Shown here piece by piece: positions 5,148 through 59,344 of a stretch of 64,000 bases of DNA (within the stretch, counting starts at the first letter, position 1; each line of letters opens with the position of its first letter). The notes beneath the pieces are model-generated. The model was not told the origin of the DNA and searched no databases. It worked only from the letters and a program-made list of their open reading frames with translations. Origin of the DNA: Bolinopsis microptera (taxonomy: Eukaryota); assembly GCF_026151205.1 (NCBI RefSeq), contig NC_087073.1, positions 19,228,658-19,292,657 of the forward strand, read 5' to 3'. The position numbers were made by a program, and so were the translations under genes.

Positions 5148-5206
<59 letters not shown>

Positions 5207-5319
5207 AACAACAACAACAACAACAATCCGAAGTCCCGGTGACACTTTGTCAAGAACAGCTTATTAAAAGAAAAAGACAATCCGAAGTCCCGGTGACACT
5301 TTGTCAAGAATCAGCCCAT

Positions 5320-5364
<45 letters not shown>
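5148..5364 (+). repeat. Internal A-rich low-complexity region of the copia element: poly(A)~57, (CAA)7, a 34-bp direct repeat x2, then poly(A)~43
   Basis: Seen directly in the sequence. The unit caatccgaagtcccggtgacactttgtcaagaa occurs twice. Confidence 0.85.
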
Positions 5365-5367
<3 letters not shown>

Positions 5368-15749: not shown

Positions 15750-15770
15750 CTGAAGATGTTTATTGTTAAC

Positions 15771-16135
15771 TAACACTGTTACTAACTAACACTGTTACTA
15801 ACTAACACTGTTACTAACTAACACTGTTACTATTTACTTACTAACACTGTTACTAACTAACACTGTTACTAACTAACACTGTTACTAACTAACACTGTTA
15901 CTAACTAACACTGTTACTAACTAACACTGTTACTATTTACTTACTAACACTGTTACTAACTAACACTGTTACTAACTAACACTGTTACTAACTAACAATG
16001 TTACTAACTAACACTGTTACTAACTAACACTGTTAGTACTAACTAACAATGTTTGTACTAACTAACACTGTTAGTAGTTACTAACACTGTTACTAACTAA
16101 CACTGTTACTAACTAACATTGTTAGTACTCGTGTT
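15771..16135. repeat. 18-bp minisatellite (CTAACTAACACTGTTACT)n, about 20 copies, inside a PWP2 intron
   Basis: Direct reading. Confidence 0.9.
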
Positions 16136-17891: not shown

Positions 17892-18731
17892 CTAAGCTCC
17901 GGCAGATTTAAAAAGTAGATGGTTACTATCAAGGGTGTTCATACCCCCAAACCGTTCAAGGGTTTTCAATTGGGTCTGGTAGAACCCCTCTCTAGCTTCC
18001 ATAGCCTTTTCTTTGTCTGCTTTACTAATATTAGGCTCAAATACTAAAGCGTCTACTATAATGACAGAAAGGTGCTTACTGAGTGAGGAATTATAGGAGG
18101 CTATGGTACTAAAATCTAAATCATGATCAATATCTAAAAAATGGTTAACTAATTTACAACTTCTTATACCTTTCTTTATGTGACTCTTATGGTTAGAGAA
18201 TCTCTTAGGGAGATTTGAGGTAGTATAACCGACATACGACTGTTTACAAGTCTTACACTCCATTAAATAAATGAGGTTATAACTCTGACAAGATATATAC
18301 TTAGTTATAGGGAAAACTTGTTTAGAATGGTGACTACTAAAATTGGAACAGGGGGACAGGAAATTTTGCTTACAAACATAACATTTACCACAAGCATGGC
18401 ACCCTGGGTCGACAGCCCCGGGAACCGCCCTTAGACTTTCGGAGTCCGGTTCCTGGATCTGGCTTGCAGTTGTTTCTCTCTCATTATCACAGTTTAAAGT
18501 TCCACTGGCACGGTACTTATTGTGTACAAGCATGCCACCGATAGTTTGATTCTTTCGATGACTCACGAATACACTGTCCACACGTACCAGCTTCTTCAGG
18601 GCCGGTTCAAGGTTGAGAAGGTGCTTATACTTATGGATAATGCCCCCCATGTTGGGAAGTGCTGGATTTTGATCCATCACCATGGGTATTAAACAGGCAG
18701 TCGACTCATCCTTGTCTTTAAGGGTATACAA
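17892..18731 (-). CDS. Free-standing ORF (279 aa) with a Cys-rich zinc motif and a complete GIY-YIG nuclease domain of Penelope-like-element (PLE) type. No RT is present, so this is probably a 5'-truncated PLE or an EN-only derivative.
   Basis: CHACGKCYVC (CX2-5CXXC-like) lies upstream of LIYLMEC..SYVGYTT....R...H (GIY...YVG), followed by the conserved Arg, His, Glu (EAREGFYQ) and Asn (GGMN). About 35% identical to the ORF at 35823-36452. Confidence 0.65.
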   Translation of the reverse strand: MYTLKDKDESTACLIPMVMDQNPALPNMGGIIHKYKHLLNLEPALKKLVRVDSVFVSHRKNQTIGGMLVHNKYRASGTLNCDNERETTASQIQEPDSESLRAVPGAVDPGCHACGKCYVCKQNFLSPCSNFSSHHSKQVFPITKYISCQSYNLIYLMECKTCKQSYVGYTTSNLPKRFSNHKSHIKKGIRSCKLVNHFLDIDHDLDFSTIASYNSSLSKHLSVIIVDALVFEPNISKADKEKAMEAREGFYQTQLKTLERFGGMNTLDSNHLLFKSAGA

Positions 18732-18825: not shown

Positions 18826-19239
18826 ACTAAATATATAACTTGTCAGAGTAATAACCTTATTTATTTAATGGAGTGTAGAACTTGTAAACAGTCGTATGTA
18901 GGATATACTACTTCTAATCTCCCTAAGAGATTTTCTAATCATAAGAGCCACATTAAGAAAGGTATCAGAAGTTGTAAGTTAGTAAATCACTTTTTAGATA
19001 TTGATCATGATTTAGATTTTAGTTCAATAGCCTTATATAACTCTTCACTTAGTACGCACCTTTCTGTTATTATAGTGGACGCTCTTGAATTTAAACCTGA
19101 AATAAGTCAAGCAGATAGGGAAAAGGCCATGGAAGCTAGAGAGGGGTTCTACCAGACCCAATTGAAAACCCTTGAGCGTTATGGGGGTATGAACACCCTC
19201 GATAGTAACCACATCCTTTTTAAATCCGCTGGAGCTTAA
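18826..19239 (+). mobile_element. Inverted, 5'-truncated duplicate of the GIY-YIG domain (about 90% amino-acid identity to the C-terminal 125 aa of the 17892-18731 ORF), head-to-head with the longer copy
   Basis: KYITCQSNNLIYLMECRTCKQSYVGYTTSNLPKRFSNHKSHIKKG... is encoded on the plus strand. Homology breaks at about 18810-18826. Confidence 0.7.
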
Positions 19240-34959: not shown

Positions 34960-35307
34960 TCACTTAAAACTCCCAGTGGATAGGGTTATAGTATCAAGGT
35001 ACTCGATAGGCTGAGGAGAAGCAGTTTCTTCTTCAATGATTTCTGCTGAAACAAATGCTCTTAACTTAAAGTTTTTAAGGTTTGGCACAACAAGTTGAGG
35101 GGTCATTAATGGATCTTCTATAAAGCTACTGGAATCCTCTGATAAGTAACCATATGCTGAAGCAGTTCTTTTGTTATATCTCCAATAAGATCCAGCCCTA
35201 TCATCTTTTCCAGTTTTTGGTCCCCTATGTTTGAATGGTTTGACGAATCTTTCTCTACGAATGCATGCATTTGCAACACGTCCAATGACACCACTAGACA
35301 TGATCAC
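34960..35307 (-). CDS. MRPL41: Mitochondrial ribosomal protein L41 (mL41 / MRPL41)-like, intronless
   Basis: HRGPKTGKDDRAG...LMTPQLVVPNLKNFKLRAFVS versus human MRPL41 KRGPRTFRGRKGRGAKG...[20 protein letters not shown]. Confidence 0.7.
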   Translation of the reverse strand: MIMSSGVIGRVANACIRRERFVKPFKHRGPKTGKDDRAGSYWRYNKRTASAYGYLSEDSSSFIEDPLMTPQLVVPNLKNFKLRAFVSAEIIEEETASPQPIEYLDTITLSTGSFK

Positions 35308-35822: not shown

Positions 35823-36452
35823 ATTACCTCTAGTAACCTGAGTGACTCAAAACAACAGAGTAGCACCCTTGAAGAAAAGAAGAATGGCAAAAAGTTCTTC
35901 CAATTTGTCAAGAAAACAGGAAGCAACCTCAAAAGCCGGTTGGTTAAGGTGAAAGAAATAGCTCTGGGGAAAAAGCATGGTCAAACAAGGCCGTGTAGAA
36001 AGAAGAACTGTGCAACGTGTGAGTCTATTGATAGTGCTACACAAATCAGCATCAATGGGAAACGGGTAAAACCAGCACCAGGTACATGCATCACTTACAA
36101 CATCATATATTTGATCAGATGTAAACTGTGTGAGAAACCATACGTAGGCAAATCCACCAGAATGCTACGGGTAAGGTTTGGCGAACACAGAAGAGCATTC
36201 TACAAGATCATCAGTGGGCAAAAGGTTGACACGGATGATGACTCAAACTGCGTAGGACTCCACCTCCATATAGAGCATGGACTGACTCAGAAGGAAAATT
36301 TTAACAATAGTGTTTCAGTGTGTATCCTAGAAAATTCAAGTCCTAGTAGTTTAGATGTTAAGGAGCACCGATATATACATGCCTTAAATTCCCTCCGCCC
36401 CTCAGGAATGAATAGTACAAACCCTTTTAAGATTCCTTTATTGCATAATTGA
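35823..36452 (+). CDS. Second free-standing PLE-type zinc-motif + GIY-YIG nuclease ORF. There is no in-frame ATG near its start, so it is probably a 5'-truncated element.
   Basis: CRKKNCATC (CX4CX2C), then IIYLIRCKLCEKPYVGKST..R..FGEHRR (GIY..YVG..R..H), then LENSS...EHRYIHALNSLRPSGMN (Glu/Asn). Same architecture as 17892-18731. Confidence 0.6.
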   Translation: MTSSNLSDSKQQSSTLEEKKNGKKFFQFVKKTGSNLKSRLVKVKEIALGKKHGQTRPCRKKNCATCESIDSATQISINGKRVKPAPGTCITYNIIYLIRCKLCEKPYVGKSTRMLRVRFGEHRRAFYKIISGQKVDTDDDSNCVGLHLHIEHGLTQKENFNNSVSVCILENSSPSSLDVKEHRYIHALNSLRPSGMNSTNPFKIPLLHN

Positions 36453-36708
36453 TTTTTATTTTGCCTGAGGGGCTTTCCATAAATTATTTTTTTAAATAAT
36501 TGGTCCTTTTATTGATGTTTCATATTTCACGGCAGTTTCCTTTTCAGAGTTTGAGTTTATATTTAGAAACTAACCATACTATCTTTTAGATTTATGTCAC
36601 TTATGATGGCTCCGGCTGAAAGTACTATGACTCATTTTATCTAGAAGATTGTAGTTTCATTGCTTCTGAAGTAGCTATCAGTTCGCCGGTCAATGTTGGG
36701 TATAATAC

Positions 36709-38825
36709 TCTTGTTGCTCTAGATACATACTTTTTAAAGGATTTTACCCACGTATCCTCTAATATCACCTAATTTGTCCAATTTTACGTTTCTACTTTAA
36801 GAGGGGGAGGGGCACCAACTGGTGGCGCTTTTGCAGCGGGGGTGCCAACATGCAACATTATGCTACTGAATAGATCTAGAATCTTCTAAGAGTACCATAG
36901 TACTACAATTTAGATGTATATAATGCCTTTTGTTTAATAGAACCAGGATAAAGGTGCAATTGTGGAATGTAAAGATACTTGGACTCCAAACAAATTTAAA
37001 TTGCAGTACGTAATCTAATCTAATTGCAGCGGCACACACTTAAAAGCTTTAGTGATTCGTATAAGAAACAGCTACTCTCATCTATAACAACAGACCCTAA
37101 TTATACCGTCGACAATTCATATGACAAATTTTACACTGCAATCATAGTCAACGATAACTAAGTATCTTCTAATTCTTTTAAATCTGAGGCATATATAATT
37201 GATGTATCGAAAGGATATTCCCTTTTTTACCACCTTACCATTCTGATTGATTTTGCACATGACTGACATGTTTTAACTGGAGAAGGGGTTCGCACAGTGG
37301 TAGTTTTATAAACCACTTTTAATTTATTGACCTATTATACCTAGTGGTAGTTTTATAGACCACATTTAATTTATTAACTTATTATACTTAGTATTTATTT
37401 TTGGTGACTGTATCACCCAGTTTTAACATTTGATAATTGTACAGTTTATTGACGACACATTGACTGAATGTTATTTTATATTCTAATTTATATTCTAGAT
37501 ATTTTATTTATTTTTCAACAGACGACAACTTCCTGTTTTTTCTTCTATATTAGTTACTCATATCTCTTGTACAGACTGTTTTACAAGGACATTGACAGAT
37601 GATACTCACATTAGGCATTCATTATTGCATCTAAATTATTTCACTTGCATTAGGTTTAGAAATTTATTCTCTGGTTAACAGACTCAAATGTTTAATTAAT
37701 TTGTAGTATGACAGTAAGGTATCGTATATAAGAAGTTATTTAATTTTGCTTGGGCTATTATATTGACTATTGAGGTTTAATGATGATATGGAATTTGAAT
37801 ATTATATAAATTTACACTATGTGGTTGGGGCATTTTGCATAGTAAATATGGTTACTACTCCTATATATCATATTATTTGATTGGCATTCGATTTCTGGTT
37901 ATTTTCCTAGGAATATGATTATTATATCTCAATTTGGCTTTAGGTAGGGTGCCCCGCTAATAGAACTGGATTCTTCCAGGAAGCATCCCGTGCACAGAGC
38001 TTGGTCTACATATATATTAAATTATTAACCATTCATTCTGTATGTGCACGAAAATTTATTTCAATCAAAAACTTACTATTACTATCATGATTGTACTATA
38101 GACAGAAAATCTCTCAAATCGATTTTGGGCGCTTTTAACCATTTGTTGTAATGTTTTTAAATACTAAATATCTAAATTTATATTTACGAATTAATTAATA
38201 TTTAACAATTTATTCGGTAGTTCTATCTGATATTGATATTGATATTGATTATATTGATATTGTTGTTATTGAACGAAGCTAACTCTAGACATACCTTACT
38301 CGGGAATATTATGACTGGGATAAAGTGGTGGGTTTTGGAAAATTCCGCCATATTTTTCCCGGTCAAAAATTTTACCAGTCATAATAAAACCCGCCGAGTC
38401 AGATTATGGGGTTCCAAGGGGGTGGTGATCATCATATTTTACCTGAAGTCTCATATGTGCTAGAGAAGACGTTTGAAGCAGTGGATGGAGGGCTGTAACT
38501 TTATTGGCTGTTGCTACCATAATTTCGTTATAAAAATCACAATTTGGTTGTAGAAATCAGATTTCAGGATAGACCGTGATTCTCATTTCTCTTGGCCTTG
38601 CCCATGAATCAGTGAATCGTAGAGAAGAAAACAATTTATATGTTATAGAAGAAATCAGTGGAACGAGAGACATCAGCTGAGTCGCTCAAGATTGATCGCT
38701 TCTCGTGTGCAGTGTGTAGACTAAAAAAGAGGGAGTTTTTCCCGTTAAGGGGGGGGGCCAATGGATATTTTTTTGTGAAACTTGATTTCGAGATAGTAGT
38801 TGACCAACAAACTAAGACCAGTGAC
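36709..38825 (+). repeat. Copy 1 of a 2128-bp direct tandem duplication
   Basis: Near-identical to 38837-40953 (identical ORFs in the ORF track with a period of 2128). The junction carries an 11-bp TCTAGAGCAAC, the inverse complement of the unit start TCTTGTTGCTCTAGA. Confidence 0.85.
38301..38400. repeat. Roughly 100-bp hairpin-forming MITE-like module (inverted ends CTCGGGAATATTATGACTGGGATAA ... TTACCAGTCATAAT). Also at 40429-40528 (duplicate) and, diverged, at 45608-45716.
   Basis: Direct reading. The 45.6-kb copy ends with ATAATATTCCCGAG, the reverse complement of the 38.3-kb copy start. Confidence 0.55.
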
Positions 38826-38836
38826 TCTAGAGCAAC

Positions 38837-40953
38837 TCTTGTTGCTCTAGATACATACTTTTTAAAGGATTTTACCCACGTATCCTCTAATATCACCTAA
38901 TTTGTCCAATTTTACGTTTCTACTTTAAGAGGGGGAGGGGCACCAACTGGTGGCGCTTTTGCAGCGGGGGTGCCAACATGCAACATTATGCTACTGAATA
39001 GATCTAGAATCTTCTAAGAGTACCATAGTACTACAATTTAGATGTATATAATGCCTTTTGTTTAATAGAACCAGGATAAAGGTGCAATTGTGGAATGTAA
39101 AGATACTTGGACTCCAAACAAATTTAAATTGCAGTACGTAATCTAATCTAATTGCAGCGGCACACACTTAAAAGCTTTAGTGATTCGTATAAGAAACAGC
39201 TACTCTCATCTATAACAACAGACCCTAATTATACCGTCGACAATTCATATGACAAATTTTACACTGCAATCATAGTCAACGATAACTAAGTATCTTCTAA
39301 TTCTTTTAAATCTGAGGCATATATAATTGATGTATCGAAAGGATATTCCCTTTTTTACCACCTTACCATTCTGATTGATTTTGCACATGACTGACATGTT
39401 TTAACTGGAGAAGGGGTTCGCACAGTGGTAGTTTTATAAACCACTTTTAATTTATTGACCTATTATACCTAGTGGTAGTTTTATAGACCACATTTAATTT
39501 ATTAACTTATTATACTTAGTATTTATTTTTGGTGACTGTATCACCCAGTTTTAACATTTGATAATTGTACAGTTTATTGACGACACATTGACTGAATGTT
39601 ATTTTATATTCTAATTTATATTCTAGATATTTTATTTATTTTTCAACAGACGACAACTTCCTGTTTTTTCTTCTATATTAGTTACTCATATCTCTTGTAC
39701 AGACTGTTTTACAAGGACATTGACAGATGATACTCACATTAGGCATTCATTATTGCATCTAAATTATTTCACTTGCATTAGGTTTAGAAATTTATTCTCT
39801 GGTTAACAGACTCAAATGTTTAATTAATTTGTAGTATGACAGTAAGGTATCGTATATAAGAAGTTATTTAATTTTGCTTGGGCTATTATATTGACTATTG
39901 AGGTTTAATGATGATATGGAATTTGAATATTATATAAATTTACACTATGTGGTTGGGGCATTTTGCATAGTAAATATGGTTACTACTCCTATATATCATA
40001 TTATTTGATTGGCATTCGATTTCTGGTTATTTTCCTAGGAATATGATTATTATATCTCAATTTGGCTTTAGGTAGGGTGCCCCGCTAATAGAACTGGATT
40101 CTTCCAGGAAGCATCCCGTGCACAGAGCTTGGTCTACATATATATTAAATTATTAACCATTCATTCTGTATGTGCACGAAAATTTATTTCAATCAAAAAC
40201 TTACTATTACTATCATGATTGTACTATAGACAGAAAATCTCTCAAATCGATTTTGGGCGCTTTTAACCATTTGTTGTAATGTTTTTAAATACTAAATATC
40301 TAAATTTATATTTACGAATTAATTAATATTTAACAATTTATTCGGTAGTTCTATCTGATATTGATATTGATATTGATTATATTGATATTGTTGTTATTGA
40401 ACGAAGCTAACTCTAGACATACCTTACTCGGGAATATTATGACTGGGATAAAGTGGTGGGTTTTGGAAAATTCCGCCATATTTTTCCCGGTCAAAAATTT
40501 TACCAGTCATAATAAAACCCGCCGAGTCAGATTATGGGGTTCCAAGGGGGTGGTGATCATCATATTTTACCTGAAGTCTCATATGTGCTAGAGAAGACGT
40601 TTGAAGCAGTGGATGGAGGGCTGTAACTTTATTGGCTGTTGCTACCATAATTTCGTTATAAAAATCACAATTTGGTTGTAGAAATCAGATTTCAGGATAG
40701 ACCGTGATTCTCATTTCTCTTGGCCTTGCCCATGAATCAGTGAATCGTAGAGAAGAAAACAATTTATATGTTATAGAAGAAATCAGTGGAACGAGAGACA
40801 TCAGCTGAGTCGCTCAAGATTGATCGCTTCTCGTGTGCAGTGTGTAGACTAAAAAAGAGGGAGTTTTTCCCGTTAAGGGGGGGGGCCAATGGATATTTTT
40901 TTGTGAAACTTGATTTCGAGATAGTAGTTGACCAACAAACTAAGACCAGTGAC
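38837..40953 (+). repeat. Copy 2 of the 2128-bp tandem duplication. Its last 81 bp (40873-40953) form the outer part of the left arm of the following palindrome.
   Basis: Direct comparison with copy 1. Confidence 0.85.
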
Positions 40954-42301
40954 CGAACTTTTGAGGGGGTCCCGGACCCCAACCGCCAAACGGTGCGCGC
41001 AGGGCAGCCACGCCCATATTTGGTCCAAATTAGGCCCAATTTAGCCAAATACCCTGAACATGCCCAAAACCAAGGTTTATGGTGCTCTACTTGTAGCTAG
41101 TGGTCTCCTGAACTCGTATATGAAATTTCATCAAGATTGGACGAAAAATGACTGAGTTATGAGCCAAAAACCATATGCCCATATTTGGACATACGCACCA
41201 AATTTGGTAGATTTCGTCCCATAAATTGGTTAAATATCAATATTTTTGAATGAAACTTACTTTATATGAAAGGTAAGCCTAAACTACATATTATCTGTAA
41301 GTTATAGCTTTAAAAATCAAGAGGCTTGCATATAATGAACATATTGACACGGGTGCAGAGTTGAGTCTGTGTGTTTAAATGTGGATACTAAGGCGAAAAA
41401 ACCACAAAAAATTAACTAAATTGCCCATATCTCGGTTCGCGATATTCGCGGAATTGATCTCATTAAAATTGTAACAACTCAATCAGTTTTCAAAATTTTT
41501 GCATGAAATTTTCGGAATCGACTCGAAATTGCATTTCCACCTTATTTTAAATACGGATTTTTGATTTAGGCCTCCAAAAAAATTTGGCGGCCAAATTCCA
41601 AAATTATCTCACAAAAATTCAGAATTTGGCCGCCAAATTTTTTTGGAGGCCTAAATCAAAAATCTGTATTTAAAATAAGGTGGAAATGCGATTTCGAGTC
41701 GATTCCGAAAATTTCATGCAAAAATTTTGAAAACTGATTGAGTTGTTACAATTTTAATGAGATCAATTCCGCAAATATCGCGAACCGAGATATGGGCAAT
41801 TTAGTTCATTTTTGTGGTTTTTTCGCCTAAGTATCCACATTTAAACAGATATAAAGCTATAACTTACAGATAATATGTAGTTTAGGCTTACCTTTCATAT
41901 AAAGTAAGTTTCATTCAAAAATATTGATATTTGACCAATTTATGGGACGAAATCTACCAAATTTGGTGCATATGCCCAAATATGGGCATATGGTTTTTGG
42001 CTCATAACTCAGTCATTTTTTGTCCAATCTTGATGAAATTTCATATACGAGTTCAGGAGACCACTAGCTAGAAGTAGAGCACCATAAACCTTGGTTTTGG
42101 GCATGTTCAGGGTATTTGGCTAAATTGGGCCTAATTTGGACCAAATATGGGCGTGGCTGCCATGCGCGCACCGTTTGGCGGTTGGGGTCCGGGACCCCCT
42201 CAAAAGTTCGGTCACTGGTCTTAGTTTGTTGGTCAATTGCTATCTCGAAATCAAGTTTCACAAAAAATACCCATTGCCCCCCCCCCCCCCCCCCCCCTTA
42301 A
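40873..42301. repeat. 1.43-kb imperfect palindrome (arms 40877-41598 and 41622-42297, about 97% identical, 23-nt central spacer) bounded by TTAA on both sides
   Basis: The right arm is the reverse complement of the left. It has one roughly 60-bp indel, a few substitutions and unequal terminal homopolymers (G9 versus C20). TTAA at 40873-40876 and 42298-42301. Homology to the external sequence ends exactly at the TTAA. Confidence 0.85.
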
Positions 42302-43004
42302 AGTAACTTGTGGCCACATCCCGCTAGAAGTGAGTAAACTGTGCCACTAATTCATGGTCCACGGTGGATTGATTACTGGAGCAGTTGAAGATGCAAAGCC
42401 AAGACGTTCCCAAATACCAAGCGGTGGGCAGGAAATCAAGCTCCGGCTGACCTTCAGAGCAGTAGCCCCACTAGCGGACAAAATGAAAGTCTTGTTTATT
42501 ATTATTATTAAATCTAAAATAGCTAATAATTTAATAAATTATTAACAGGCCCCGGCCCCTTAACGTGGGCAATAATATACGCTTTATAAATTATATAAAC
42601 AAATTGCAGTCTATTTTTCCAATGTTGTTAAGTGTCTCTTTAGATCTGTTTTGGTGTTTTGTGGGAGTTCCCACATTTGTTGGTTGAGAATGCTCAACAT
42701 AACATACATGATGCTTGACTGCTTTATTGACCCGGACAGGCACCGGGGGCAGACATCCCAACACCAGTGCGTTGGGACATAGTGTTGGTCTGCTTCAGGA
42801 CGTGTTAGATCCTAGAGAAGCCGCCATCCCCTCTACTGCTTTAGCTCAGCGGCAGCATGAGCCCTGGTTTCCTGCCACATTGGTACCTCTGAAAGTACAG
42901 AAAAGTGGTGGATTTCGGGGTCCAGGATCCTCCCTCTTTAATCTTTACGGTGGTGTTATTTCTCTGAGATGTTTGCAGAGTCTTTATTTTATGATCTTTC
43001 TAGT

Positions 43005-45188
43005 TTAGTTGGATAAATCCTGGAGAGCATCATTTTGTCCCCAAAGAAATTCGACTCTTCTAATGAATGCTTTTTGTGTGCTGCTTTTTGTTAACACTTC
43101 ATCTAGATAGGAATGTGAGTCAGCCCCACCCAGCTCTTCTTTTAGCTGCAGGTAACTGGTGTCTTGCACCTCCAGACACAATAGGAGCTGGTGTACAGGA
43201 GAATCATCGAAGCTGTTGCAGAAACGACAGGCCTCACCACTGTCACCACCCATGATCTTTTGGATATTCGCAAAGAGTGGTGAGCTGCCGTGAATGTAGT
43301 CCATTATTCGGCTGTCCAGATTTTTACTCGTGTTGTGCCCGAATAAGAAGTTGTTTTTGTCTAGGAGCAGCCCACTGTTTTTGATCTTTGTGATCACACC
43401 AAGTATCTTGGTCTCCTTGTTGTTACTGACAGTTCTGCATTGCAGATTTGTTTCGATGCTGTCAATCCAGATCTTATTTTTGTAGCTCATTATGTCTGCC
43501 TGAGTGTAATAGGCCAGATCCTTGAAATGTTGCTGCGTTAGGTCTATCATTCTGGTTCCGTGTGACTTATTTTCTTTCCAAAGGAAGTACTTTTTCAGTG
43601 ACATTGTTAAGACATGAAAGCTTGGTATTCTGCTTTCTTCAACTTGGTAGAGTGTAGCTGAGAGATTGTCACCTTGTGTGAGTACTTTGCACATGAATTT
43701 AACCGAAAGAGCTTCGAGTTGCACATCCAGTGGTGGGAGGTGGAGAGCAAGTTCGGTTAATTCCCTTTGTGGATTCAGGACTGATCCAGATATTTTTAGA
43801 ATGATTTTATTCCAGAAGCTTTTAAATTGATTGAGACACTTGTGAAGCCAAATAGGTGCTGCGTAGAACAGTTTAGTGAGGACCATTGTTTTAAGGAGGA
43901 GAGTGAGGCTGTAAACGTTTAGACCGTAGTTGCGGTTAGTTGATTTTGTTATTAATCCCCACTTTCTTTTGCATTCTTTAAGTTTTTGAGACGCATGTTT
44001 CTTGAAATTGAGGTCTTCATCTACTATTACCCCAAGGACCTTTGTGCTTTGGACGTAGTTGATGCTTTTCCCATTAATACATAATTCTGCAGGTTTCTGT
44101 TCTTCAGTATAAGCTGCAGTTTTCAAGATTATGGCCTCCGTTTTATTCGTATCACAGTTCACTACTAGCTTGTTCTTGATGCACCACTTGCTGAGGTGGT
44201 CACAAACCATCTGCATTTTTTCATGGCATCCGGAGATGTTCTCGAAGGAAATCATAAGTGTACCGTCATCAGCAAATTTGTAGCAGCTTAGATATCTTTT
44301 TACTTCTTCCGGGGTGTTGTGTGTCATGTCTGCTATGTATAGGATGAAGAGGAGAGGTGATAGTACAGCCCCCTGAGGTAATCCAAATATTGTACATTTT
44401 CTTTTTTCTCCTTTATAGTTGTTCACTTTTAGACATATCGTCCGGTTGAACAGGAAATTTCTCAGCACGTTAAGAATATTTCCTTGAATACCGAGAGTTG
44501 ATAGTTTGACACATAGTGATGGGAGATGAACACTATCAAATGCCTTTTCGAAGTCCAGGAAAAGCACTATACATGCCAGCTTCTGTCTTTTAACTTCCTC
44601 AAGGTTAGCCAGCATTCTGAAAAGATATCGCGTTGTTGATCTCCCTCCAATGAAACCTTCTTGATCTTCATCAAGAGTTCCTTCAATGTCCAGGAAGAGT
44701 CTCAATCTTTTATCTAGCACTCTTTCACAAATCTTTCCAAAGTAGGATGATATGGAAATCGGTCTATAAGCACCAGGTAACATGTAGCTGGATTTTCCTT
44801 CTTTCCTTAGGAATGTTACATCTGAAGTTTTCCACAGCCATTTTCCTGTGCTCATACACCAGTTAAATATAATCTGCAAGACGTGAAGACAATTTGTTTT
44901 CATATGTTTGAGGATGGTAGGGTGAATATTGTCTGCATCACATGATTTGTCATTTGTTTCTTGCCTTTCTATAGCTGCTTTTATCTCGTCCATAGAAATA
45001 GGGTTGTTCAGCGGATCATCTTCATTGTAACTACTTGCAGATTTGCTGCTATCATTCTGTAATTTACTGAACTCGTTATTTACATGCATGTCGTGCTCTC
45101 GGTCATTGGGTTGGTTTTGAAGGTGTTTTCCTGTGAAGAAAGTATTAAATAACAATTCCTCCTTATCTTTTTCAGATGTGACCAGCAA
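43005..45188 (-). CDS. LINE ORF2 reverse transcriptase (5'-truncated, no EN), FADD-type with a C-terminal Cys/His motif
   Basis: 727-aa ORF with PISISSYFGKICERVL, FLDFEKAFDSV, GLPQGAVLSPLLF, YKFADDGTLM and a C-terminal CRFCNSFDDSPVHQLLLC. Confidence 0.8.
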   Translation of the reverse strand: MLVTSEKDKEELLFNTFFTGKHLQNQPNDREHDMHVNNEFSKLQNDSSKSASSYNEDDPLNNPISMDEIKAAIERQETNDKSCDADNIHPTILKHMKTNCLHVLQIIFNWCMSTGKWLWKTSDVTFLRKEGKSSYMLPGAYRPISISSYFGKICERVLDKRLRLFLDIEGTLDEDQEGFIGGRSTTRYLFRMLANLEEVKRQKLACIVLFLDFEKAFDSVHLPSLCVKLSTLGIQGNILNVLRNFLFNRTICLKVNNYKGEKRKCTIFGLPQGAVLSPLLFILYIADMTHNTPEEVKRYLSCYKFADDGTLMISFENISGCHEKMQMVCDHLSKWCIKNKLVVNCDTNKTEAIILKTAAYTEEQKPAELCINGKSINYVQSTKVLGVIVDEDLNFKKHASQKLKECKRKWGLITKSTNRNYGLNVYSLTLLLKTMVLTKLFYAAPIWLHKCLNQFKSFWNKIILKISGSVLNPQRELTELALHLPPLDVQLEALSVKFMCKVLTQGDNLSATLYQVEESRIPSFHVLTMSLKKYFLWKENKSHGTRMIDLTQQHFKDLAYYTQADIMSYKNKIWIDSIETNLQCRTVSNNKETKILGVITKIKNSGLLLDKNNFLFGHNTSKNLDSRIMDYIHGSSPLFANIQKIMGGDSGEACRFCNSFDDSPVHQLLLCLEVQDTSYLQLKEELGGADSHSYLDEVLTKSSTQKAFIRRVEFLWGQNDALQDLSN

Positions 45189-45360
45189 GTCACAGTCTTT
45201 GAGGTTGCAGATAAAATTGTCAGTTAAGAAAGTCAGAAAGTCTTGTTAAGACAACAATACGACTTCGAATTTGACGGTCAGCAGCAGGGGGATATTAACA
45301 ATGATAATGAAGGGGACATTAGCGATAATGAGAATGAGAATACGCTTTAATGAAGATTTG

Positions 45361-45432
45361 ACTTATTATTGCTTAGATTTATTTGTAGCGCGATGCGTTA
45401 CTGTGCCGCGCCGAGCTGCGATGAATTGACAT
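45361..45432 (+). repeat. Dispersed repeat R1 (about 70 bp: TTTGTAGCGCGATGCGYTACTGTGCCGCGCCGAGCTGCG(CG)ATGAATTGACATCGTCAATTAAAG). Also at 47161-47233 (+) and 59054-59203 (-, split by a 24-bp tandem insert).
   Basis: Direct reading. Contains the small hairpin TTGAC-ATC-GTCAA. Confidence 0.8.
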
Positions 45433-46649
45433 CGTCAATTAAAGATTTATTTTCCTTTCAATAGACGTGTCTTTTTTTCTATTTCTGAGTAATATCAATA
45501 ACTGTAAATTGAAATAACTTCTTTAACAAGTAACAAAAAACAGAAATTTCGGTTGAAAATTTGTTGACCTCTGAAAAAAAAACTTGAAAGGTCGGCCACC
45601 GGTAAATTCATGACCGGGATAATTTGGCGGGTTTTGGGAAAGTCCGCCATATTTTTCCCGGTCATTAATTTTCCCAGTCATAAATTAACCCGCTATAATA
45701 TTCCCGAGTAACAAAGGGACTTGGAGTATAAACGACCAAGTTTGCATAAATTTTTATCCAACCAAAAATTCAGGAGGCAAAGGTTGGTGCGTAAACTATA
45801 TGGTCTGCACTCTCCGATCCTGTATCACCCTGGATTCTTTTCGACGTATCTTTGTAAAAGGTATATATACCTTTTATATGTACCATATGTACCTTCTAGT
45901 CAATCTTTTGCTACTCCAAGTCCGATCCCCTAGGATATCTGATCTAAAGTTCGTGCTAGTTATATATATGAAATATATTTTTTTCTGCTTTATATATATT
46001 AATTGATACTAATATAAATAAAATTTTTGTTTTCCCCCTAGGATGTAGGATATCTGATCTAAAGTTCGTGCTAGTTATATATATGAAATATATTTTTTTC
46101 TGCTTTATATATATTAATTGATACTAATATAAATAAAATTGTTGTTTTCTTGAAATTGTTGTTTTTTTGTAAGTAAAGTACAAAATTTTAAAAATAGGGT
46201 AGCCAAGACACCTCACAATAATCAATAATAATAATTCTATACAGTTACATAATTGAAATAATTATTGCCCCTTATTGTGGGCAGAGTACGTGTCTTTGTT
46301 GAAATGTCCTAGTATAAACTTATCTGAGTCACTGCATTGAAATGATTTAAGGAGACGAGATCGAGAGTTATTTTAAAACTTTAAGACGAAAGGGATAAAT
46401 ACTAGGACCTAATAAAATCAAAACAAAATGATTTGAAACACCTAGCTCACAGCAAAGTAGACCAGAATGGCTCTTGCTTGGGAAAGGTGCATTAACTACC
46501 CGCCGAAGCGGTGGGTTTGGGGTCGGGAGTCCCTCCTGGGATCATTTCGTCCGCAAAGTTGTACACAATACAAAAGCTACAATGAGTTATTTGGAGGACT
46601 TCGCCGCTTTGACGCGCCGCGCAAACAAGCATTCTTGCTTCGCCTTGTA

Positions 46650-46770: not shown

Positions 46771-47289
46771 TTTACAACCTACCAGGACGCACGCCGAGTT
46801 GGACTCGTCGAGAACAGATATTTTACGAGTATCACCCGTTAAGCTTCGCCTCGAAGCAAGAACAAATAATGCTAGTTGCTTTGCTTTGCAGAGCAACGAT
46901 CTGGAAGGGTTGACATCGTCAATCAATAAGTACTATACCACAGTACTATAAATGGCCGCCAACTCGGCGCGCGTCTTGGTACTGGTAGGCTATAATGAAA
47001 TTAAAGACGATAGTTGTAGTGGCGTAACGTTGCCTGTTGGCGCGCCCTCCCTTTAAGCCCCCCTCGGCCTTAAAATTGAACAAATTAGGCGATTTTATAC
47101 GATACGCCGGAAAAATCTTTTAAAAAGTGTGTTTCTAAGCCAAAGCAAAACGCGCAGTTAAGTTTTTTTGTAGCGCGATGCGCTACTGTGCCGCGCCGAG
47201 CTGCGCGATGAATTGACATCGTCAATTAAAGTTTTTCAAAATTGTCTCACGTTCAAACGACGATTTGGCGCCCCCCCTCATTTACGGTT

Positions 47290-47690
47290 CCAATTAGATT
47301 AAGACCTCTTCAGGGAAACACAGTATTACAGTATATTTATTTCTAGTTCCTGGCATCCAATAATTTAATTTTATTCCCCTTGATGGTTCCAATTAGATTA
47401 AGACCTCTTCAGGGAAACACAGTATTCCAGTATATTTATTTCTAGTTCCTGGCATCCAATAATTTAATTTTATTCCCCTTGATGGTTCCAATTAGATTAA
47501 GACCTCTTCAGGGAAACACAGTATTACAGTATATTTATTTCTAGTTCCTGGCATCCAATAATTTTATTTCATTCCCCTTGATGGTTCCAATTAGATTAAG
47601 ACCTCTTCAGGGAAACACAGTATTACAGTATATTTATTTCTAGTTCCTGGCATCCAATAATTTTATTTCATTCCCCTTGAAAAATAAATA
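47290..47690. repeat. Roughly 99-bp tandem repeat x4 (CCAATTAGATTAAGACCTCTTCAGGGAAACACAGTATTACAGTATATTTATTTCTAGTTCCTGGCATCCAATAATTTAATTTTATTCCCCTTGATGGTT)
   Basis: Direct reading. Confidence 0.9.
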
Positions 47691-52500: not shown

Positions 52501-54744
52501 TACTTTACAGAGATTGCATCTAAGAGAGTAACAGGACGCTCGCAATATCTTGTATATATATATATTTCGTTGCTGTACTCCTACACATTAAAAGTCGGTG
52601 TTGATAATATATACAAGATATTATATAATATATATTGTTAGTCAGCCACAACTGTCATTAAAACAACGCCTTGACATCAAATGTCGGTAAAATGTACCTT
52701 TACAGTCATCCTCAATAAATGTAATAGATTTGTAGTGTTGTAATTAGTTTAAAACTATATATATATATATACTTTCTTGTGTTTTAAGTCATATCTTAAG
52801 TTTGGCACATATAAATACTCCAATACTCTCACACATTATCCGCCATATAACGATGTAACTATCTGGAAAGTTTAAAGAAAGTCTATCAGTCAGACCTTGA
52901 GAAAATCAAAAATATATTCAAAGTTATTCACTAAAACACTCTATTTTCGAACAGATTTATCGTTCTGGTACCAAAATGCTTTACCATAATAAACGTACGG
53001 CGCGAGAACATTTTCTCGTCCAAAGTCTGACAGTTAACAACATGCGTAGGATTCCCTCAAGAGGTGAAAACGTAATCGCCACCCTCATTTACGTCTCTAA
53101 AATGCATGGTAGGATTGGCAGTTTATAATTATATACCTCATTGTTTATTTAAATAAGTATGAAGTAGATAACTTTTAACGAGCAAATTATAAGTAGGCAG
53201 TGCGCCATCGACAATAAGACGCGCGCGCTGACCATTGAATGGTTTTTTAGTTCTAATTTCGGCCAGCACATTATTTATTTTGGAAACAATCGAAAAGTTA
53301 TAATTTAATACTTCCCATATAACAATTTTGTTGAAATTTGGTCAGCTTACGTAAACACTTATGTTCTACTAAACATAATTTAGTTTGAGCAATTTCGATG
53401 GTCAGAATTTGAGTTATCAACTAATTTATTGACCATTGTTAATGATCTGGCCCGGCGCGCGCTACTTCGTAGCTCTTACCTATTTTGTCATTTTTAGACC
53501 TCTTAATCAAAGCCGATCTCTCCCAACTAAATTGCGTTCGGTAGTTAAGTATGATTGGAAGGTTCTGACAAATTTTCAGCATGATTCATGTTCAGGAACC
53601 GAAGATATGACAGAATAATACGACAAAAATCCAAAAGCCGCGCACCATCAAATATGGCACCTAGGCGATACTCGCGGATCATTCCAAAAAGGTATAATAA
53701 ATTTGGTACTGTGAAAATTCTCACACGTCACAGTCTCTAGAAAACGATGGTACAAAAATTTTGAAAATCCGAGCAAGTTTATTTTATCGTGCACCGCCTA
53801 TTATAAGCAAATTTTAATTGCAAAACTCAATTAAGACACATGATAAGGACATTTGTTTGTGCTTAAAAGTGTGTAAAACAATTATTGTAGCTAAAAGTAA
53901 ATACTAATAGCTTGAACTTTCCTAATATGTAATATAATGAAGTCTAATGAAAATATTTTGAAAATAATTAGAGAAAATAGTATGTTTTGGGCGAATTACA
54001 CCTAAAAATGACTTACCTGAGGACCCCAGGCTATTATGTTCATTAACATAAAGATTTGGCGGAATGACAGGCTGAGCGCGGCCCAGTAAAAAATGACCAG
54101 AAAAAGAAGGAAAACTACTAAACTTTGTCTCGATATCAACTTGAAATTATCTAGATAAGTAGATATTAAGAAATTATGGGTTTTAAAGGGGCCTGACCCA
54201 AAAGTTTGTTTTTTTTACACTACGCGGCACAACAAAATCTATTAAGCTCCTGAATTATTTGAGGTCTAAGAGTGCGGATTCTGTGTAAGCACTTTGCACG
54301 ATCTCATAGACCTCTCTCATGGTTTTAACGAGTGGGGTCAAAGATCCCGGGTCTTCCTCTCTCCCAACTTGAAGTAAAATATTCATTAACGGGTGATACT
54401 CGTAAAATATCTGTTCCATATATTGGACCGTCGACCATATACAGGACCGTCGACGAGTCCAACTCGGCGCGTGTCCTGGTAGGTTGTAAACCTACAAACC
54501 AAGCTCTAACATCGCTATGCACACATTTTCAAAAACTTGGTGATGAATATGAACTCCCTAAACCTTATCGGACGTTATTTGACCGGACATTGCGTGAACG
54601 GACATAATTTCGAACGGACATTAAAATGAACTCTTCGAAGGCATTCATGATCAGTATTTAACTTTAAGTTAACTACCTTATCGCATATTATTTGAACGGA
54701 TATCAAAATGAGGGCCTCCAGCGTCCAATTAATGTCCGTTCAAA

Positions 54745-54975
54745 TAAAGTCCGATACTTACAGAGCCTAAATAAAGTCCGATACTTACAGACCTAAGTAA
54801 AGTCCGATACTTACAGAGCCTAAATAAAGTTCGATACTTACAGAGCCTAAGTAAAGTCCGATACTTACAGAGCCTAAATAAAGTCCGATACTTACAGAGC
54901 CTAAATAAAGTCCGATACTTACAGAGCCTAAATAAAGTCCGATACTTACAGATCCAAAATAAAGTCCGACACTAA
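54745..54975. repeat. 27-bp minisatellite (AGCCTAAATAAAGTCCGATACTTACAG)n, about 8 copies
   Basis: Direct reading. Units are contiguous with no unique spacers. Confidence 0.9.
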
Positions 54976-56102
54976 CAGAGCCTAAGACGGCGAATATCTT
55001 GCTGATCTCCTCATAGGCGAGAATATACGTCTGAAGGTTCACGTGACTCTAGCCCACTGTAGTAATACTCGCTGTTACAGTGGCTACGTGATGTGAAGTA
55101 CCCACTGTAATACTTTCTATAAACTTAACTCGAACCTGAGGTGGGAGATTAGAGCTGGATAGATTGTGATATCGTAGTAAGTAATAGAAACACAATTCGC
55201 TTTGCTTGAGTCCATTATCTTACGTAAGCTGAGTGGTCATTTAAAGATGCTTGCTGAAAAGAGCGAGGTAGTGTCGAACTATAAATTTTAAGGAAGAGGC
55301 TGACTTGAACAATTACATTACAATTAAAATGGAAACTATCTTACCAGATCTAGGTCTTCCATCTGACAAGCTGAACAGAGGAAACACAGAGGAAATGCAC
55401 CCCACCAGATACAAGCTCAGCAGATCAGTACAGGCATTATTCTTCGCCTGGTAACCATGTCAGCGGGGCCCTTCGTTGCGCCACTGCTAATATGCCTGGA
55501 ATGTTAGTAATAGTATGACTATGCAATATGTACCCTCCCCCCTCCTGTACTACTTTAGAATAACTCTGCACATGGTCGCTAAATAGTTCCTAATTACGCT
55601 ACCCTCGCGGAACACAGAAACATGCATTAGGGCTCCAAAATTTATAAAAGCGCCATTTCAATAGCAATTTGTGGCGTCATTGATAACGAGCTGGTGGTTC
55701 TCGTACTCAGTTCCATTCAGACCGGTCTTTCAAATGGTTTGCTTTGCTTGTTTTCTGAGCATTTGTATAATAGTCAGTGGATCGTCACGGAGACGAAAGC
55801 AGAAGGGAAGAGAGACGAAAAGAAAAAATGGAATGTGGCTGCAGCTGATAACAGTACAGCATTGCAACCTCATCAGCCCGTTGCGGATCTTAATAGAATA
55901 TCAGGACTGATTGTTGACGATACTTTCATAAAAGCAGGAAAATCTGATAGAAAAAGTTCCGAACACAACAGATATAAAAACATTACAAAAGAGGTGGAGG
56001 AAGAAAGTGGAGGAGAGAAAGTTCTAGAGGCTCCTAGTAGTGTGTGCAGGAATAATAATAAAAAGAAAAAGGGAAATTGTACTAATTCGACTTTAACGGC
56101 AA

Positions 56103-58271
56103 ATGACAGTAAAAGAGACAAACAGAAAATCAAGAGTGAAGAAATCCTCGTCATGGAAAAAGGCAGCAAATGTTCTTCGAGAACCCTTACGCCTGAACTT
56201 TAGGTGGAAAAACTTTGGAACAATTAAAGAACTGCGAGAAAAGAAGGGGGATTACCACGAGTGTAGGTACCTGTACAACTCACTAAAATCAGACCCCCTG
56301 ACCTGCTATCTGAAGACAGAGCTCCTGTGTGACGGCGTCTCTGCGTGCGCTGATGACGAGTGCGGCTGTGACCAGGGTGCCGATGTATTCTATTGTAGTG
56401 ATGGTCTGGGTTGTGTGGCTATGGACCAGGTCTGTGATGGACAGCCAGACTGTCTAGATCAGAGCGATGAGTGTGTTTGTGAGAATTACCTGAACTGCCA
56501 AACCAACAGAGTCTTCTCCAGGTGTAAAAGTAGGACAGAGCGTGCAGACAAGTGTGGGCGGGCAGGAGGTCAGCTCATCTCTAGTTCCACCTCAGATCAG
56601 GCTGGTCTGGGACTGTTAAAGTGTTTGAATACTTTTACAGAAACAGGTTGGGCCAAGAAGAAGTCAGTTCTGAAACAGTATTCTAAGAGTATGAAGCAGG
56701 CGTATAAGTCTGCATGTAGAACACAATGCCAACCTATTGAGAATCACTGCGAGTTCATCGACTGGAGCAACATAGAGATGAACCCAGCGACCAAGACACT
56801 GTCTGCGAACTACTCCTGTGGCGATGGCAGCAGCATCCCTCTCTCAGATGATATGGACGTGTGTGACGGCTACAACGATTGTCCTAACAAAGCCGATGAA
56901 ACCTTCTGCGCCTCCAGATTCTACTGTTCGGATGGAAGCAAGAGTTTGGCGCCCTCAAGGGTGTGTGACGCTGTCCCGGACTGTACCGACCTCTCGGACG
57001 AGTGTCAGACCTGTGCACGTGATAACCTCGCAGATGAGAAACATATGATAAGTAACAAATATTTGAATTATTATATGGTTATATTGTGTCTTCTGATCCT
57101 GGTCTTGAACTGCAGGGGGTTGTATGGCCATGGGGCTAGACTCAACTACATTATTCGTCACAATTCAAGAATAGACAGTGCTTTGTGCCTCCAGCTCTCA
57201 CTGTACGATTTTTTGATGGGGGTCTACCTTCTAATTATAACCCAGAAGAATTTCCAGTATTACGGCTCGTACTGCCTTCATGATGCAAGCTGGAGGTCCT
57301 CGGCAGCGTGTAACTTCAGTGGTTTCATCTTCACTCTCTCCTCTCATGGCTCCCTCATGACTGTAGTGATCATGGGAGCTATCCGCTGCTACAACTGCGA
57401 GAACATGCTCGCCTTCTTCTCTCTCAAACGCTTCCTCATCGGACTCACCCTAGGGAACTTTCTCAACATTTTTTGCAGTGCAGTTGCTCTCTTTCCCACC
57501 GAATATTTGGAGAATGTGTTCGTGACTACAATATTCTTCCAGGACAATAGACTAATGAAGAAAGGTACCAAAGCACTTATAGACGATCTTCTGAAGGAGT
57601 ACTACGGACACAACCTAACGTATGAAGTGCCTGGTTGGTCCAATAGACTGGATCTCCTCTCAAAGATCACATCAAATCCTGAATTGTTTCTTCCGACCTA
57701 CAAGTTTGGATTCTTCAACCAATCGCCTCTTTGTATCCAGAATCTCTTCTCCAATGACCCTGATGACGATCTACAGCTTCTCAAAATGCTGTATGTGAGC
57801 TTCCTTGGAGCTGTGATTCTGAGTTTCACCGTGTGCTACATCTGGATTGTGTTTATCAGGGTCAAGTCAGTTGTTCCCACAGCAAGCCCGGCCTTCAGAC
57901 GGAACACTCTGCGGAACAACAAGAAGCTTTCAAGAAAGGTTTCTTTGATTATTTCTTCACAACTAATAGCCTGGATCCCAATAATAATCGCTACCATCCT
58001 GACACTCTCTCACAAGAAGATCCCCCCTGATTTCTATGAGATGACAGCTATAGTCCTGGTCCCGGTCAACAGTTTGTTCAACCCCATCTTCCACAGTCCA
58101 CGGCACGTACCTAAGAAGACAAAGAGGGGAGCTACTTTGGTAACCATGGCGACCATGAGATCTCAAAGTACAGGAGACAACAGAGCAGCCCCGCTGTATC
58201 AACAGAGCTGGAGGACTGAGGTGAAAAGTGGAGAAGTTACCAACAATCTTGTCGGGATTGACTTAAAGTAG
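56103..58271 (+). CDS. Intronless 722-aa ORF with multiple LDL-receptor class A (LDLa) cysteine modules followed by a divergent rhodopsin-type 7TM domain (GRL101 / relaxin-receptor-like LDLa-GPCR without visible LRRs)
   Basis: LDLa consensus repeats CDGVSACADDECGC, CDGQPDCLDQSDEC, CDGYNDCPNKADETFC, CDAVPDCTDLSDEC. Seven hydrophobic segments (YMVILCLLILVL ... IVLVPVNSLFNPIFH). Degenerate E/DRY (IRC) and NPxxY (NPIFH) motifs. Confidence 0.65.
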   Translation: MTVKETNRKSRVKKSSSWKKAANVLREPLRLNFRWKNFGTIKELREKKGDYHECRYLYNSLKSDPLTCYLKTELLCDGVSACADDECGCDQGADVFYCSDGLGCVAMDQVCDGQPDCLDQSDECVCENYLNCQTNRVFSRCKSRTERADKCGRAGGQLISSSTSDQAGLGLLKCLNTFTETGWAKKKSVLKQYSKSMKQAYKSACRTQCQPIENHCEFIDWSNIEMNPATKTLSANYSCGDGSSIPLSDDMDVCDGYNDCPNKADETFCASRFYCSDGSKSLAPSRVCDAVPDCTDLSDECQTCARDNLADEKHMISNKYLNYYMVILCLLILVLNCRGLYGHGARLNYIIRHNSRIDSALCLQLSLYDFLMGVYLLIITQKNFQYYGSYCLHDASWRSSAACNFSGFIFTLSSHGSLMTVVIMGAIRCYNCENMLAFFSLKRFLIGLTLGNFLNIFCSAVALFPTEYLENVFVTTIFFQDNRLMKKGTKALIDDLLKEYYGHNLTYEVPGWSNRLDLLSKITSNPELFLPTYKFGFFNQSPLCIQNLFSNDPDDDLQLLKMLYVSFLGAVILSFTVCYIWIVFIRVKSVVPTASPAFRRNTLRNNKKLSRKVSLIISSQLIAWIPIIIATILTLSHKKIPPDFYEMTAIVLVPVNSLFNPIFHSPRHVPKKTKRGATLVTMATMRSQSTGDNRAAPLYQQSWRTEVKSGEVTNNLVGIDLK

Positions 58272-58601: not shown

Positions 58602-58884
58602 CAGGTCAGGGTCAGGGTCAGGGTCAGGGTCAGGGTCAGGGTCAGGGTCAGGGTCAGGGTCAGGGTCAGGGTCAGGGTCAGGGTCAGGGTCAGGGTCAGG
58701 GTCAGGGTCAGGGTCAGGGTCAGGGTCAGGGTCAGGGTCAGGGTCAGGGTCAGGGTCAGGGTCAGGGTCAGGGTCAGGGTCAGGGTCAGGGTCAGGGTCA
58801 GGGTCAGGGTCAGGGTCAGGGTCAGGGTCAGGGTCAGGGTCAGGGTCAGGGTCAGGGTCAGGGTCAGGGTCAGGGTCAGGGTCA
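58602..58884. repeat. (GGTCAG)~47 hexanucleotide microsatellite, about 330 bp downstream of the GPCR stop
   Basis: Direct reading. The overlapping ORFs (poly-DP, GQ, RV, LT) are artefacts. Confidence 0.95.
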
Positions 58885-59344
58885 TACAACGTATGACAAA
58901 CAAACCCGATTATCTTGTAAGTTTATCACGAGTATCACCCGTTAAAGATTATCTAAATCTATCAAACACCAAGGTCATGAGCCATAAACTATATGCCCAT
59001 ACTTAGGCATACGATTTCAGTCCATAAATCGGTCAAATGTCAATATTTGAAGGTCAGACTTAATTGACGATGTCAATTCATCTCAGCTCGGCGCGGCACA
59101 GTAGCGCATCACGCCGATCTAGAGAAGCCTCATCACGCCGATCTAGAGAAGCCTCATTGAGTGCGCGGCGCGGCACAGTAACGCATCGCGCTACAAGGTC
59201 AGACCAACTTTATATTAAACATATTCTTTGTCTAGAAATTTCTTCGAAGTAGCGCGAGCGCGCGCGCGCCGCTTATTTCTCGAAATGTTATGGCCATTGG
59301 CCCGATGGCTGGATGGCAAGTGCTACGAAGTAGCGCGCGCCGGG

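Follow-up and report, generated by a model that had tools for sequence, protein, structure and literature searches.

Foldback transposons such as Drosophila FB, Galileo and Tetris are flanked by target-site duplications (TSDs) of 7-9 bp, rather than by TTAA. These elements consist largely of very long inverted arms, and most copies are non-coding; an association with structural rearrangements has been described (FB and Galileo, the latter of the P superfamily, PMC4168063; Tetris, PMC4079207). Duplications of TTAA are documented for two superfamilies, piggyBac and Kolobok. Next to TTAA, Kolobok termini follow the rule 5'-RR...YY-3' (R, purine; Y, pyrimidine; PMC9587614), and the Xenopus T2-MITEs (miniature inverted-repeat transposable elements), which belong to Kolobok, begin with AGGRR directly inside TTAA (PMC6004289), whereas the terminal inverted repeats (TIRs) of piggyBac elements start with C, as CC[C/T]T (PMC2872659) or C[C/A/T][C/A/T] (PMC5381638). 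Here, we describe a TTAA-bounded palindrome at positions 40873-42301 of a 64,000-nucleotide stretch of the genome of Bolinopsis microptera (contig NC_087073.1, 19,228,658 to 19,292,657, forward strand; this whole stretch is called the window below), together with the 2.1-kb tandem duplication that adjoins it.

The segment 40873-42301 is very probably one copy of a multi-copy, non-coding DNA transposon of the foldback type, that is, with very long TIRs, which inserts into TTAA and duplicates it. As a mobile element in an animal genome, the window palindrome is nothing out of the ordinary. Its parts are the following.

40873-40876, no strand: left TTAA, left copy of the TSD, read from the sequence, with the duplication seen in the filled and empty sites L018 and L019 described below
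40877-41598, + strand: left arm of the foldback element, 722 nt, starting with G9 at 40877-40885, from the arm and family alignments
41313-41367, + strand: 55-bp insertion in the left arm only, from the arm alignment and the family alignment
41599-41621, no strand: central loop, a non-complementary spacer of 23 nt, CAAAATTATCTCACAAAAATTCA
41622-42297, - strand: right arm, reverse complement of the left arm, 676 nt, ending with C21 at 42277-42297
42298-42301, no strand: right TTAA, right copy of the TSD, read from the sequence and from the same L018/L019 pair

Global alignment of one half with the reverse complement of the other gave 658 matches, 22 mismatches and 69 gap columns. This corresponds to an arm identity of 96.8% over 680 aligned positions, or 97.5% after homopolymer trimming, in agreement with the first-pass annotation, which had reported a palindrome with TTAA on both sides, a 23-nt loop and arms about 97% identical. 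The same annotation listed an indel, a few substitutions and unequal terminal runs as the differences between the two arms. All three are present, but two of the sizes had to be corrected: the indel measures 55 bp rather than about 60 bp, and the run at the right end is C21 rather than C20, facing G9 at the left. The 55-bp block is private to the left arm of the window copy. Indeed, it is missing from the right arm and from all six arms of three aligned related copies, and it has no counterpart in the arms added to a larger alignment (agreement of the window left arm 0.14 at arm nt 451-500); a template for it was sought in the window without success.

As single-stranded DNA, the region is predicted to fold into a single hairpin of -790 kcal/mol. 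TRF detected no tandem arrays within 40873-42301, and the only recurring motif, the 12-nt GCCCATATTTGG, occurs two to three times per arm. The palindrome is internal to the contig, with unique flanks on both sides and edges lying exactly at TTAA, a tetranucleotide found in the window at a frequency of about 0.009 per position. Elsewhere in the window, positions 58974-59048 are about 70% similar to arm nt 284-373 in both orientations; judged by this similarity, they may represent an ancient remnant of a related element, unless the resemblance is due to chance.

Stop-free translations of the arm were used as probes in public assemblies of the European Nucleotide Archive (ENA). A first search matched 40 open reading frames (ORFs), and an exhaustive HMMER search yielded 333 representative ORFs at E<=1e-3, with lengths of 49-152 aa among the best 150 of the 333. 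The nearest public sequences belong to marine metagenome assemblies, including Tara and SOLA samples and the HiFi assemblies ERZ25073835 and ERZ25073829. DNA was fetched around seven of the ORF matches and contained eight related copies (L001, L002, L003, L005, two in L006, L007 and L018). It had been proposed at the outset that other copies of the arm be sought and their flanks inspected for TTAA; the eight copies read as DNA carry TTAA at every intact end.

A palindromic layout of 1.3-1.4 kb is found in six of the eight (L001, L002, L003, L005, L006 and L007), full copies spanning 1313-1429 bp with arms of 660-720 bp. L001, L002, L003 and L005 are complete palindromes of 1326-1396 bp. L007 is also a complete palindrome, broken by a nested hAT-like element of 1383 bp. 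In the main copy of L006, the left arm is internally deleted and the right end truncated, and the second copy in L006 is partial. Finally, L018 (5463-6181) is a one-armed derivative of 719 bp, nearly all of the left arm being gone between two GGCCAA microhomologies; despite this loss, it still has the G-run and the TTAA on both sides. A long palindrome is expected to be stabilised by asymmetric deletions such as this loss of an arm. The insert nested in L007 occupies 3876-5258, in the right arm, and is bounded by perfect TIRs of 14 bp (CAGTGTGCGACCGG / CCGGTCGCACACTG) and flanked by a duplication of 8 bp (TTTTGGGC), features that read as a hAT-like signature. As a further observation, the P0038 ORF reads through both arms, of about 260 bp each, of a much shorter and divergent relative, so that the family also includes MITE-sized members.

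Arms are 97.5-99.5% identical within copies and 85-95% identical between subfamilies, as expected if each subfamily had a palindromic master whose copies then decayed. With an arm divergence of 2.5%, the window copy is the most decayed among the copies sampled. L001 and L002 are about 99% identical and have in common a 14-bp asymmetry between the arms and the orientation of the loop, which argues that the whole palindrome is transferred, or copied, as a single duplex, instead of being reconstructed from one arm at every transposition. The outer 200 nt or so of the arm are the most conserved across subfamilies, with a conservation of 0.96 at arm nt 51-200, the likely transposase-binding region as far as conservation can indicate it. 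The ends carry the family signature TTAA-Gn-CAATGGGTATTTTTTTGTGAAAC..., and TTAA-Gn-CAATGGGTATTTTTTTGTGAAACTTGATTTCGAGATAG would serve as a search signature. These clean diagnostic ends make the element usable as an insertion-polymorphism marker and as a handle for finding its autonomous partner.

A scan of metagenome DNA with a conserved 22-mer gave a single match, L004, a contig of 1473 bp in ERZ767285 with a coverage of 0.88; a scan of viral contigs gave no match. L004 contains the outer 369 bp of the arm, at 97% identity with the window copy, and continues into unrelated GC-rich DNA of coding-like character. It is probably a chimeric contig, and it suggests that the species of the window, or a very close relative, was present in that sample. 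At least two related marine animals harbour the family in abundance.

The flanking TTAA was followed through the family. In the nine copies read as DNA, the window copy included, all 16 intact ends (15 in the fetched loci, plus that of the window copy) show the G-run or C-run adjoining TTAA. Ends encoded within ORFs were read from the codons beside the Gly or Pro run: 31 of 31 from the first search are compatible with TTAA, one end that had failed the pattern (P0004) having been checked in DNA and found to be TTAA, and so are 44 of the 54 ends of the more divergent representative ORFs. The L018 copy interrupts an ORF for the reverse transcriptase (RT) of a long interspersed nuclear element (LINE). 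Removing the element and one TTAA restores a frame of about 230 aa, ...ISKWLNVNKLSLNVDKTKTLIF..., and uninterrupted paralogous proteins read ...KLSLNVDKTK... through the L018 site. The corresponding empty site is found in the paralogue L019, which reads aaattatca TTAA atgtagacaaaac (aaattatca TTAA atgtagac), where the filled site of L018 reads aaattatca TTAA, element, TTAA atgtagacaaaac. Because the filled site has two TTAA and its empty paralogue a single one, TTAA is a target-site duplication. This filled/empty pair is the classical proof of a TSD, for a member of the family rather than for the window copy itself. For the latter, the insertion context is ...TTTTTCCCG to the left of TTAA and AGTAACTTG... 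to the right; the two flanks joined with a single TTAA give the expected empty site, and a query with this joined sequence found no paralogue in the window or in the fetched loci. The initial proposal of a foldback element inserted at TTAA is thus borne out, by a palindromic TTAA-flanked family and by the single TTAA of a paralogous empty site.

No Pfam domain was found in any reading frame of the arms, and no Rfam family in the whole window. On the same grounds, an origin of the arms from a gene or from the N-terminus of a transposase was dropped. The element inserts as a whole double-stranded unit into TTAA, duplicating the tetranucleotide as seen in the L018/L019 pair, and would have to be moved by a transposase supplied in trans, because the arms encode nothing recognisable. 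The window copy landed in lineage-specific, transposon-rich DNA, and its arms then diverged by about 2.5% and acquired the 55-bp insertion.

The arms of 722 and 676 nt around a 23-nt loop, a layout shared by six of the eight relatives, the lack of coding capacity, the multiple copies and the flanking TSDs place the element with foldback or long-TIR transposons. Like FB, Galileo and Tetris, the window family consists mostly of very long inverted arms and is non-coding in most copies, but its superfamily is a different one, and its arms are free of the tandem subrepeats that compose those of classical Drosophila FB elements. The first-pass annotation had left the choice between a foldback and a MITE-like element. 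The first term applies. The second does not in its strict sense, which implies a homogeneous length of up to a few hundred bp: the family combines full copies of more than 1.3 kb with the short-armed P0038 and the 719-bp L018.

Immediately upstream, and overlapping the first nucleotides of the element, lies the tandem duplication.

36707-38825, + strand: duplication copy 1, 2119 nt, 100% identical to copy 2
38826-38836, + strand: duplication junction, consisting of 9 nt, TCTAGAGCA, inverse of unit nt 7-15, plus AC shared with 36707-36708
38835-40953, + strand: duplication copy 2, 2119 nt, running 81 nt into the intact element

The two copies are arranged head to tail with a period of 2128 and are identical over 2119 nt, homopolymers included. 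In each copy, the final 81 nt consist of TTAA followed by 77 nt from the start of the left arm; the segment 38745-38825 is 100% identical to 40873-40953 and 93.5% identical to the right arm. As the unit holds the first 81 nt of the element at 100% while the arms differ by 2.5%, the duplication must be much younger than the insertion. The junction reads ...CCAGTGAC-TCTAGAGCAAC-TCTTGTTGC..., where TCTAGAGCAAC (38826-38836) corresponds in reverse complement to unit nt 5-15 (GTTGCTCTAGA, 36713-36723), in accordance with the 11-bp inverse copy of the unit start first noticed there.

An inverted templated insert associated with a short primer repeat is the signature of synthesis-dependent microhomology-mediated end joining (SD-MMEJ) or alternative end joining (alt-EJ), and palindrome hairpins and tandem duplications are linked in a review of these pathways (PMC7407515). 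At the junction, we find an inverse insert of 9 nt, a 2-nt repeat (AC/GT) and a 4-nt loop, AAGA. A break at 36706/36707 would leave a bottom-strand 3' tail, ...TCTAGAGCAACAAGAGT-3', whose terminal GT could pair with AC four nt upstream, thereby forming the loop AAGA. Snap-back extension would then add TGCTCTAGA, after which the extended end would be ligated, with no additional microhomology, to a break that lies in the left arm, after 40953. This model reproduces the junction sequence exactly, and the breakpoint at 40953 is located 10 nt upstream of a GC-rich local hairpin (GGGGGTCCCGGACCCC). From the sequence, we infer that the junction could have arisen by snap-back SD-MMEJ, a geometry that also agrees well with the template switching or hairpin-mediated error suggested at first. 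Such a junction would be expected if the sister chromatid had been used to repair a replication fork or a break located within the hairpin-prone arm.

Duplications attributed to SD-MMEJ/alt-EJ (PMC7407515) and those attributed to fork stalling and template switching or microhomology-mediated break-induced replication (FoSTeS/MMBIR, PMC2583991) are, like that of the window, kb-scale and head-to-tail. They also share with the window junction a short inverse templated insert taken from no more than 15 nt from the breakpoint and a microhomology of 2 nt. If it took place in vivo, the window event would be a repair of the DNA polymerase theta type.

On balance, the duplication is somewhat more likely to be real than to be a product of the assembly. 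There is nevertheless a sizeable chance, somewhat short of even, that it is an assembly or library artefact, which could stem from a haplotype variant set in series or from template switching by a polymerase in vitro, the resulting chimera being retained in the consensus. The complete identity of the two copies, homopolymers included, would be explained in this way, the breakpoint is inside a hairpin-prone repeat that complicates assembly, and the closest relative is devoid of the whole block, in a comparison limited to that relative. However, the 9-nt inverse templated insert with its 2-nt primer repeat is a recognised scar of in-vivo end joining (PMC7407515) and not a clean overlap. Concatenation of haplotypes would not make such a scar, though in-vitro polymerase chimeras could mimic it. 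If real, the duplication offers a natural example of snap-back end joining acting on a break within a long palindrome; if not, it marks a spot of the assembly that needs correction.

Two further origins were considered and rejected. Opening of a hairpin with P nucleotides would require a perfect palindrome at the junction, which two central bases break, and alternative transposition via an end of the element does not account for a breakpoint located 77 nt inside the element instead of at its terminus. As regards its content, the duplicated unit holds pieces of two other dispersed repeats, whose other copies in the window are 84-86% identical (36720-36786 vs. 47071-47137; 38311-38394 and 40439-40522 vs. 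45610-45693); one of these repeats is also present in L002. One of the two begins about 12 nt past the left breakpoint of the duplication.

The superfamily of the element was examined from its ends. In all copies, the sequence directly inside TTAA is 5'-GG...CC-3' (TTAA-GG...CC-TTAA). These ends fit the RR...YY rule and fail the C...G pattern, so that Kolobok is favoured over piggyBac. With TTAA at 16 of 16 intact ends, its duplication in the L018/L019 pair, and 5'-RR...YY-3' termini, the sequence tentatively points to the Kolobok superfamily, an assignment that we hold to be slightly better than even. The family resembles the Xenopus T2-MITEs (PMC6004289) in its TTAA TSD, in its purine-purine 5' ends and pyrimidine-pyrimidine 3' ends (here TTAA-GGGG), and in being non-coding and multi-copy. 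In contrast, T2-MITEs are short and have short TIRs, whereas the window family, at 1.3-1.4 kb, is made almost entirely of arms; it also differs from them by homopolymer ends of variable length and by having no linked Kolobok transposase with matching ends.

The first-pass annotation had taken TTAA as a piggyBac-type target. It is unlikely that the element is mobilised by a piggyBac-like transposase that would cut and paste it at TTAA. The TTAA TSD is indeed present, and marine invertebrates do harbour TTAA MITEs derived from piggyBac, such as the CMITEs of corals (PMC2872659), which have in common with the window family the TTAA duplication, a non-autonomous nature and marine invertebrate hosts. 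However, the ends break the first-base-C rule where they obey that of Kolobok: every copy starts with 5'-GGG and ends with CCC-3', whereas piggyBac TIRs start with C (PMC2872659, PMC5381638). The arms of 660-720 bp are also far from the short TIRs of piggyBac elements (12-19 bp), and CMITEs, of about 100 bp, have TIRs of 13-14 bp starting with CCCTT, where the window family starts with GGGG. A search for piggyBac-like transposase genes had been recommended. No transposase ORF of the piggyBac type was found in the window or in the fetched loci, and Pfam analysis of large ORFs, both in the window and around the other copies, gave retroelement domains and host genes only, and no DNA transposase. 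Beside Kolobok and piggyBac, the rest of the probability goes to another or unknown TTAA-specific group.

Several points weigh against the account given so far, of a Kolobok-type foldback element adjoined by a genuine duplication. Neither the window nor the fetched loci yielded an autonomous element or a transposase with matching ends, and the protein search brought no ORF fused to an autonomous element, the matches being short ORFs of at most 152 aa among the best 150 of 333. The superfamily call consists of TTAA plus two terminal bases. The empty site is known from a one-armed relative in the assembly of another species, and not for the window copy. The variable lengths of the terminal runs are odd for a transposase that needs a fixed spacing between cleavage and binding sites. 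Finally, zero differences over 2119 nt is also what an assembly or library artefact would look like.

That the palindrome itself is a sequencing or assembly artefact, from a fold-back chimeric long read or a missed adapter, is most improbable. Long-read platforms can yield palindromic reads, and the homopolymers are unequal in length between the arms, but the palindrome has an internal position, unique flanks and exact TTAA edges, its arms differ by substitutions and by the 55-bp insertion, and the same architecture is seen in six of eight related copies that come from an independent HiFi assembly and whose intact ends all carry TTAA. The existence of palindromic copies elsewhere thus strengthens the original argument, drawn from the divergence of the arms, for a real inverted repeat and not a chimeric read. 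Hardly credible at all is the formation of a non-mobile palindrome in place by local inverted duplication (template switch) of unique DNA, with a coincidental TTAA, since, in spite of template-switch signatures nearby at the duplication junction, there are hundreds of related sequences elsewhere, their ends and TTAA flanks are common to the copies, and an empty site with a single TTAA exists. The locus is to be masked as a TTAA-specific foldback DNA transposon, probably of the Kolobok type, and not as a mis-assembly or a hairpin gene.

The G/C runs just inside TTAA range from 3 to about 27 nt among copies, and their lengths differ even between siblings (27/27 in L001, 9/12 in L002). Slippage of long homopolymers is the simplest cause of this variation, possibly with some sequencing error. 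For a cut-and-paste element, it is nevertheless unusual that the distance from the cleavage site to the conserved subterminal region should vary. A joint hypothesis, which we hold to be distinctly improbable, is that the end runs are created or re-sized during transposition, and not only by slippage, and that the perfect 1.4-kb hairpin acts in vivo as a replication barrier that seeded the snap-back duplication. Variable opening of hairpins, fill-in and non-templated addition at the TTAA-adjacent ends are mechanisms that might re-size the runs. If this hypothesis were true, the one-armed deletion of L018 would be another outcome of the same palindrome instability, and the locus would offer a natural, sequence-resolved case of palindrome-driven structural variation in an animal germline. 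Neither the re-sizing of runs nor a palindrome-seeded duplication is known to be documented for TTAA transposons.

The surroundings of the element were compared with the orthologous locus of a related species (L008/L009), where the flanking synteny, with MRPL41 and Mss4, is conserved at 85-93% DNA identity and MRPL41 is 98% identical. At about 8139-8127 of that locus, the homologue of 36820-36901 directly adjoins the homologue of 46224 onward.

36902-46223, no strand: block of about 9.3 kb without counterpart at the orthologous locus of the related species, from the L008/L009 comparison
43005-45188, - strand: LINE RT ORF, with an RVT_1 Pfam match

The missing block holds most of both duplication units, the foldback element and the LINE RT ORF. 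Because L008/L009 are devoid of all of it, the foldback copy lies in lineage-specific, transposon-derived DNA; for the same reason, this locus can neither test the duplication nor serve as the empty site of the window copy. Searches for exact-protein matches in public collections gave none for the LDLa-domain G-protein-coupled receptor (GPCR) at 56103-58271, the ORF at 40786-41100, which spans the boundary between unit and element, or MRPL41 at 34960-35301.

The gene content of the window comprises a copia-like polyprotein, LINE RTs, GIY-YIG fragments, Mss4, a mitochondrial ribosomal protein of the MRP-L27/L41 family and the LDLa-domain GPCR. Other features are as follows.

397-5013: copia-type polyprotein ORF, intact-looking, 1538 aa, with rve and RVT_2 domains
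17892-18731, - strand: ORF with a GIY-YIG motif, first of an inverted pair of related sequences
18868-19239, + strand: ORF with a GIY-YIG motif, second of this pair
35940-36452, + strand: ORF with a GIY-YIG motif

The GIY-YIG ORFs may be remnants of retroelements carrying GIY-YIG or of homing-type elements. Downstream of the copia ORF, at 5149-5365, runs of A57 and A45 flank a duplicated segment of 54 bp. Lastly, the window contains a perfect (GGTCAG)47 microsatellite (58604-58884) and minisatellites consisting of four repeats of 99 bp (47286-47680), nine repeats of 27 bp (54742-54985) and 16/103-bp arrays (15767-16124).

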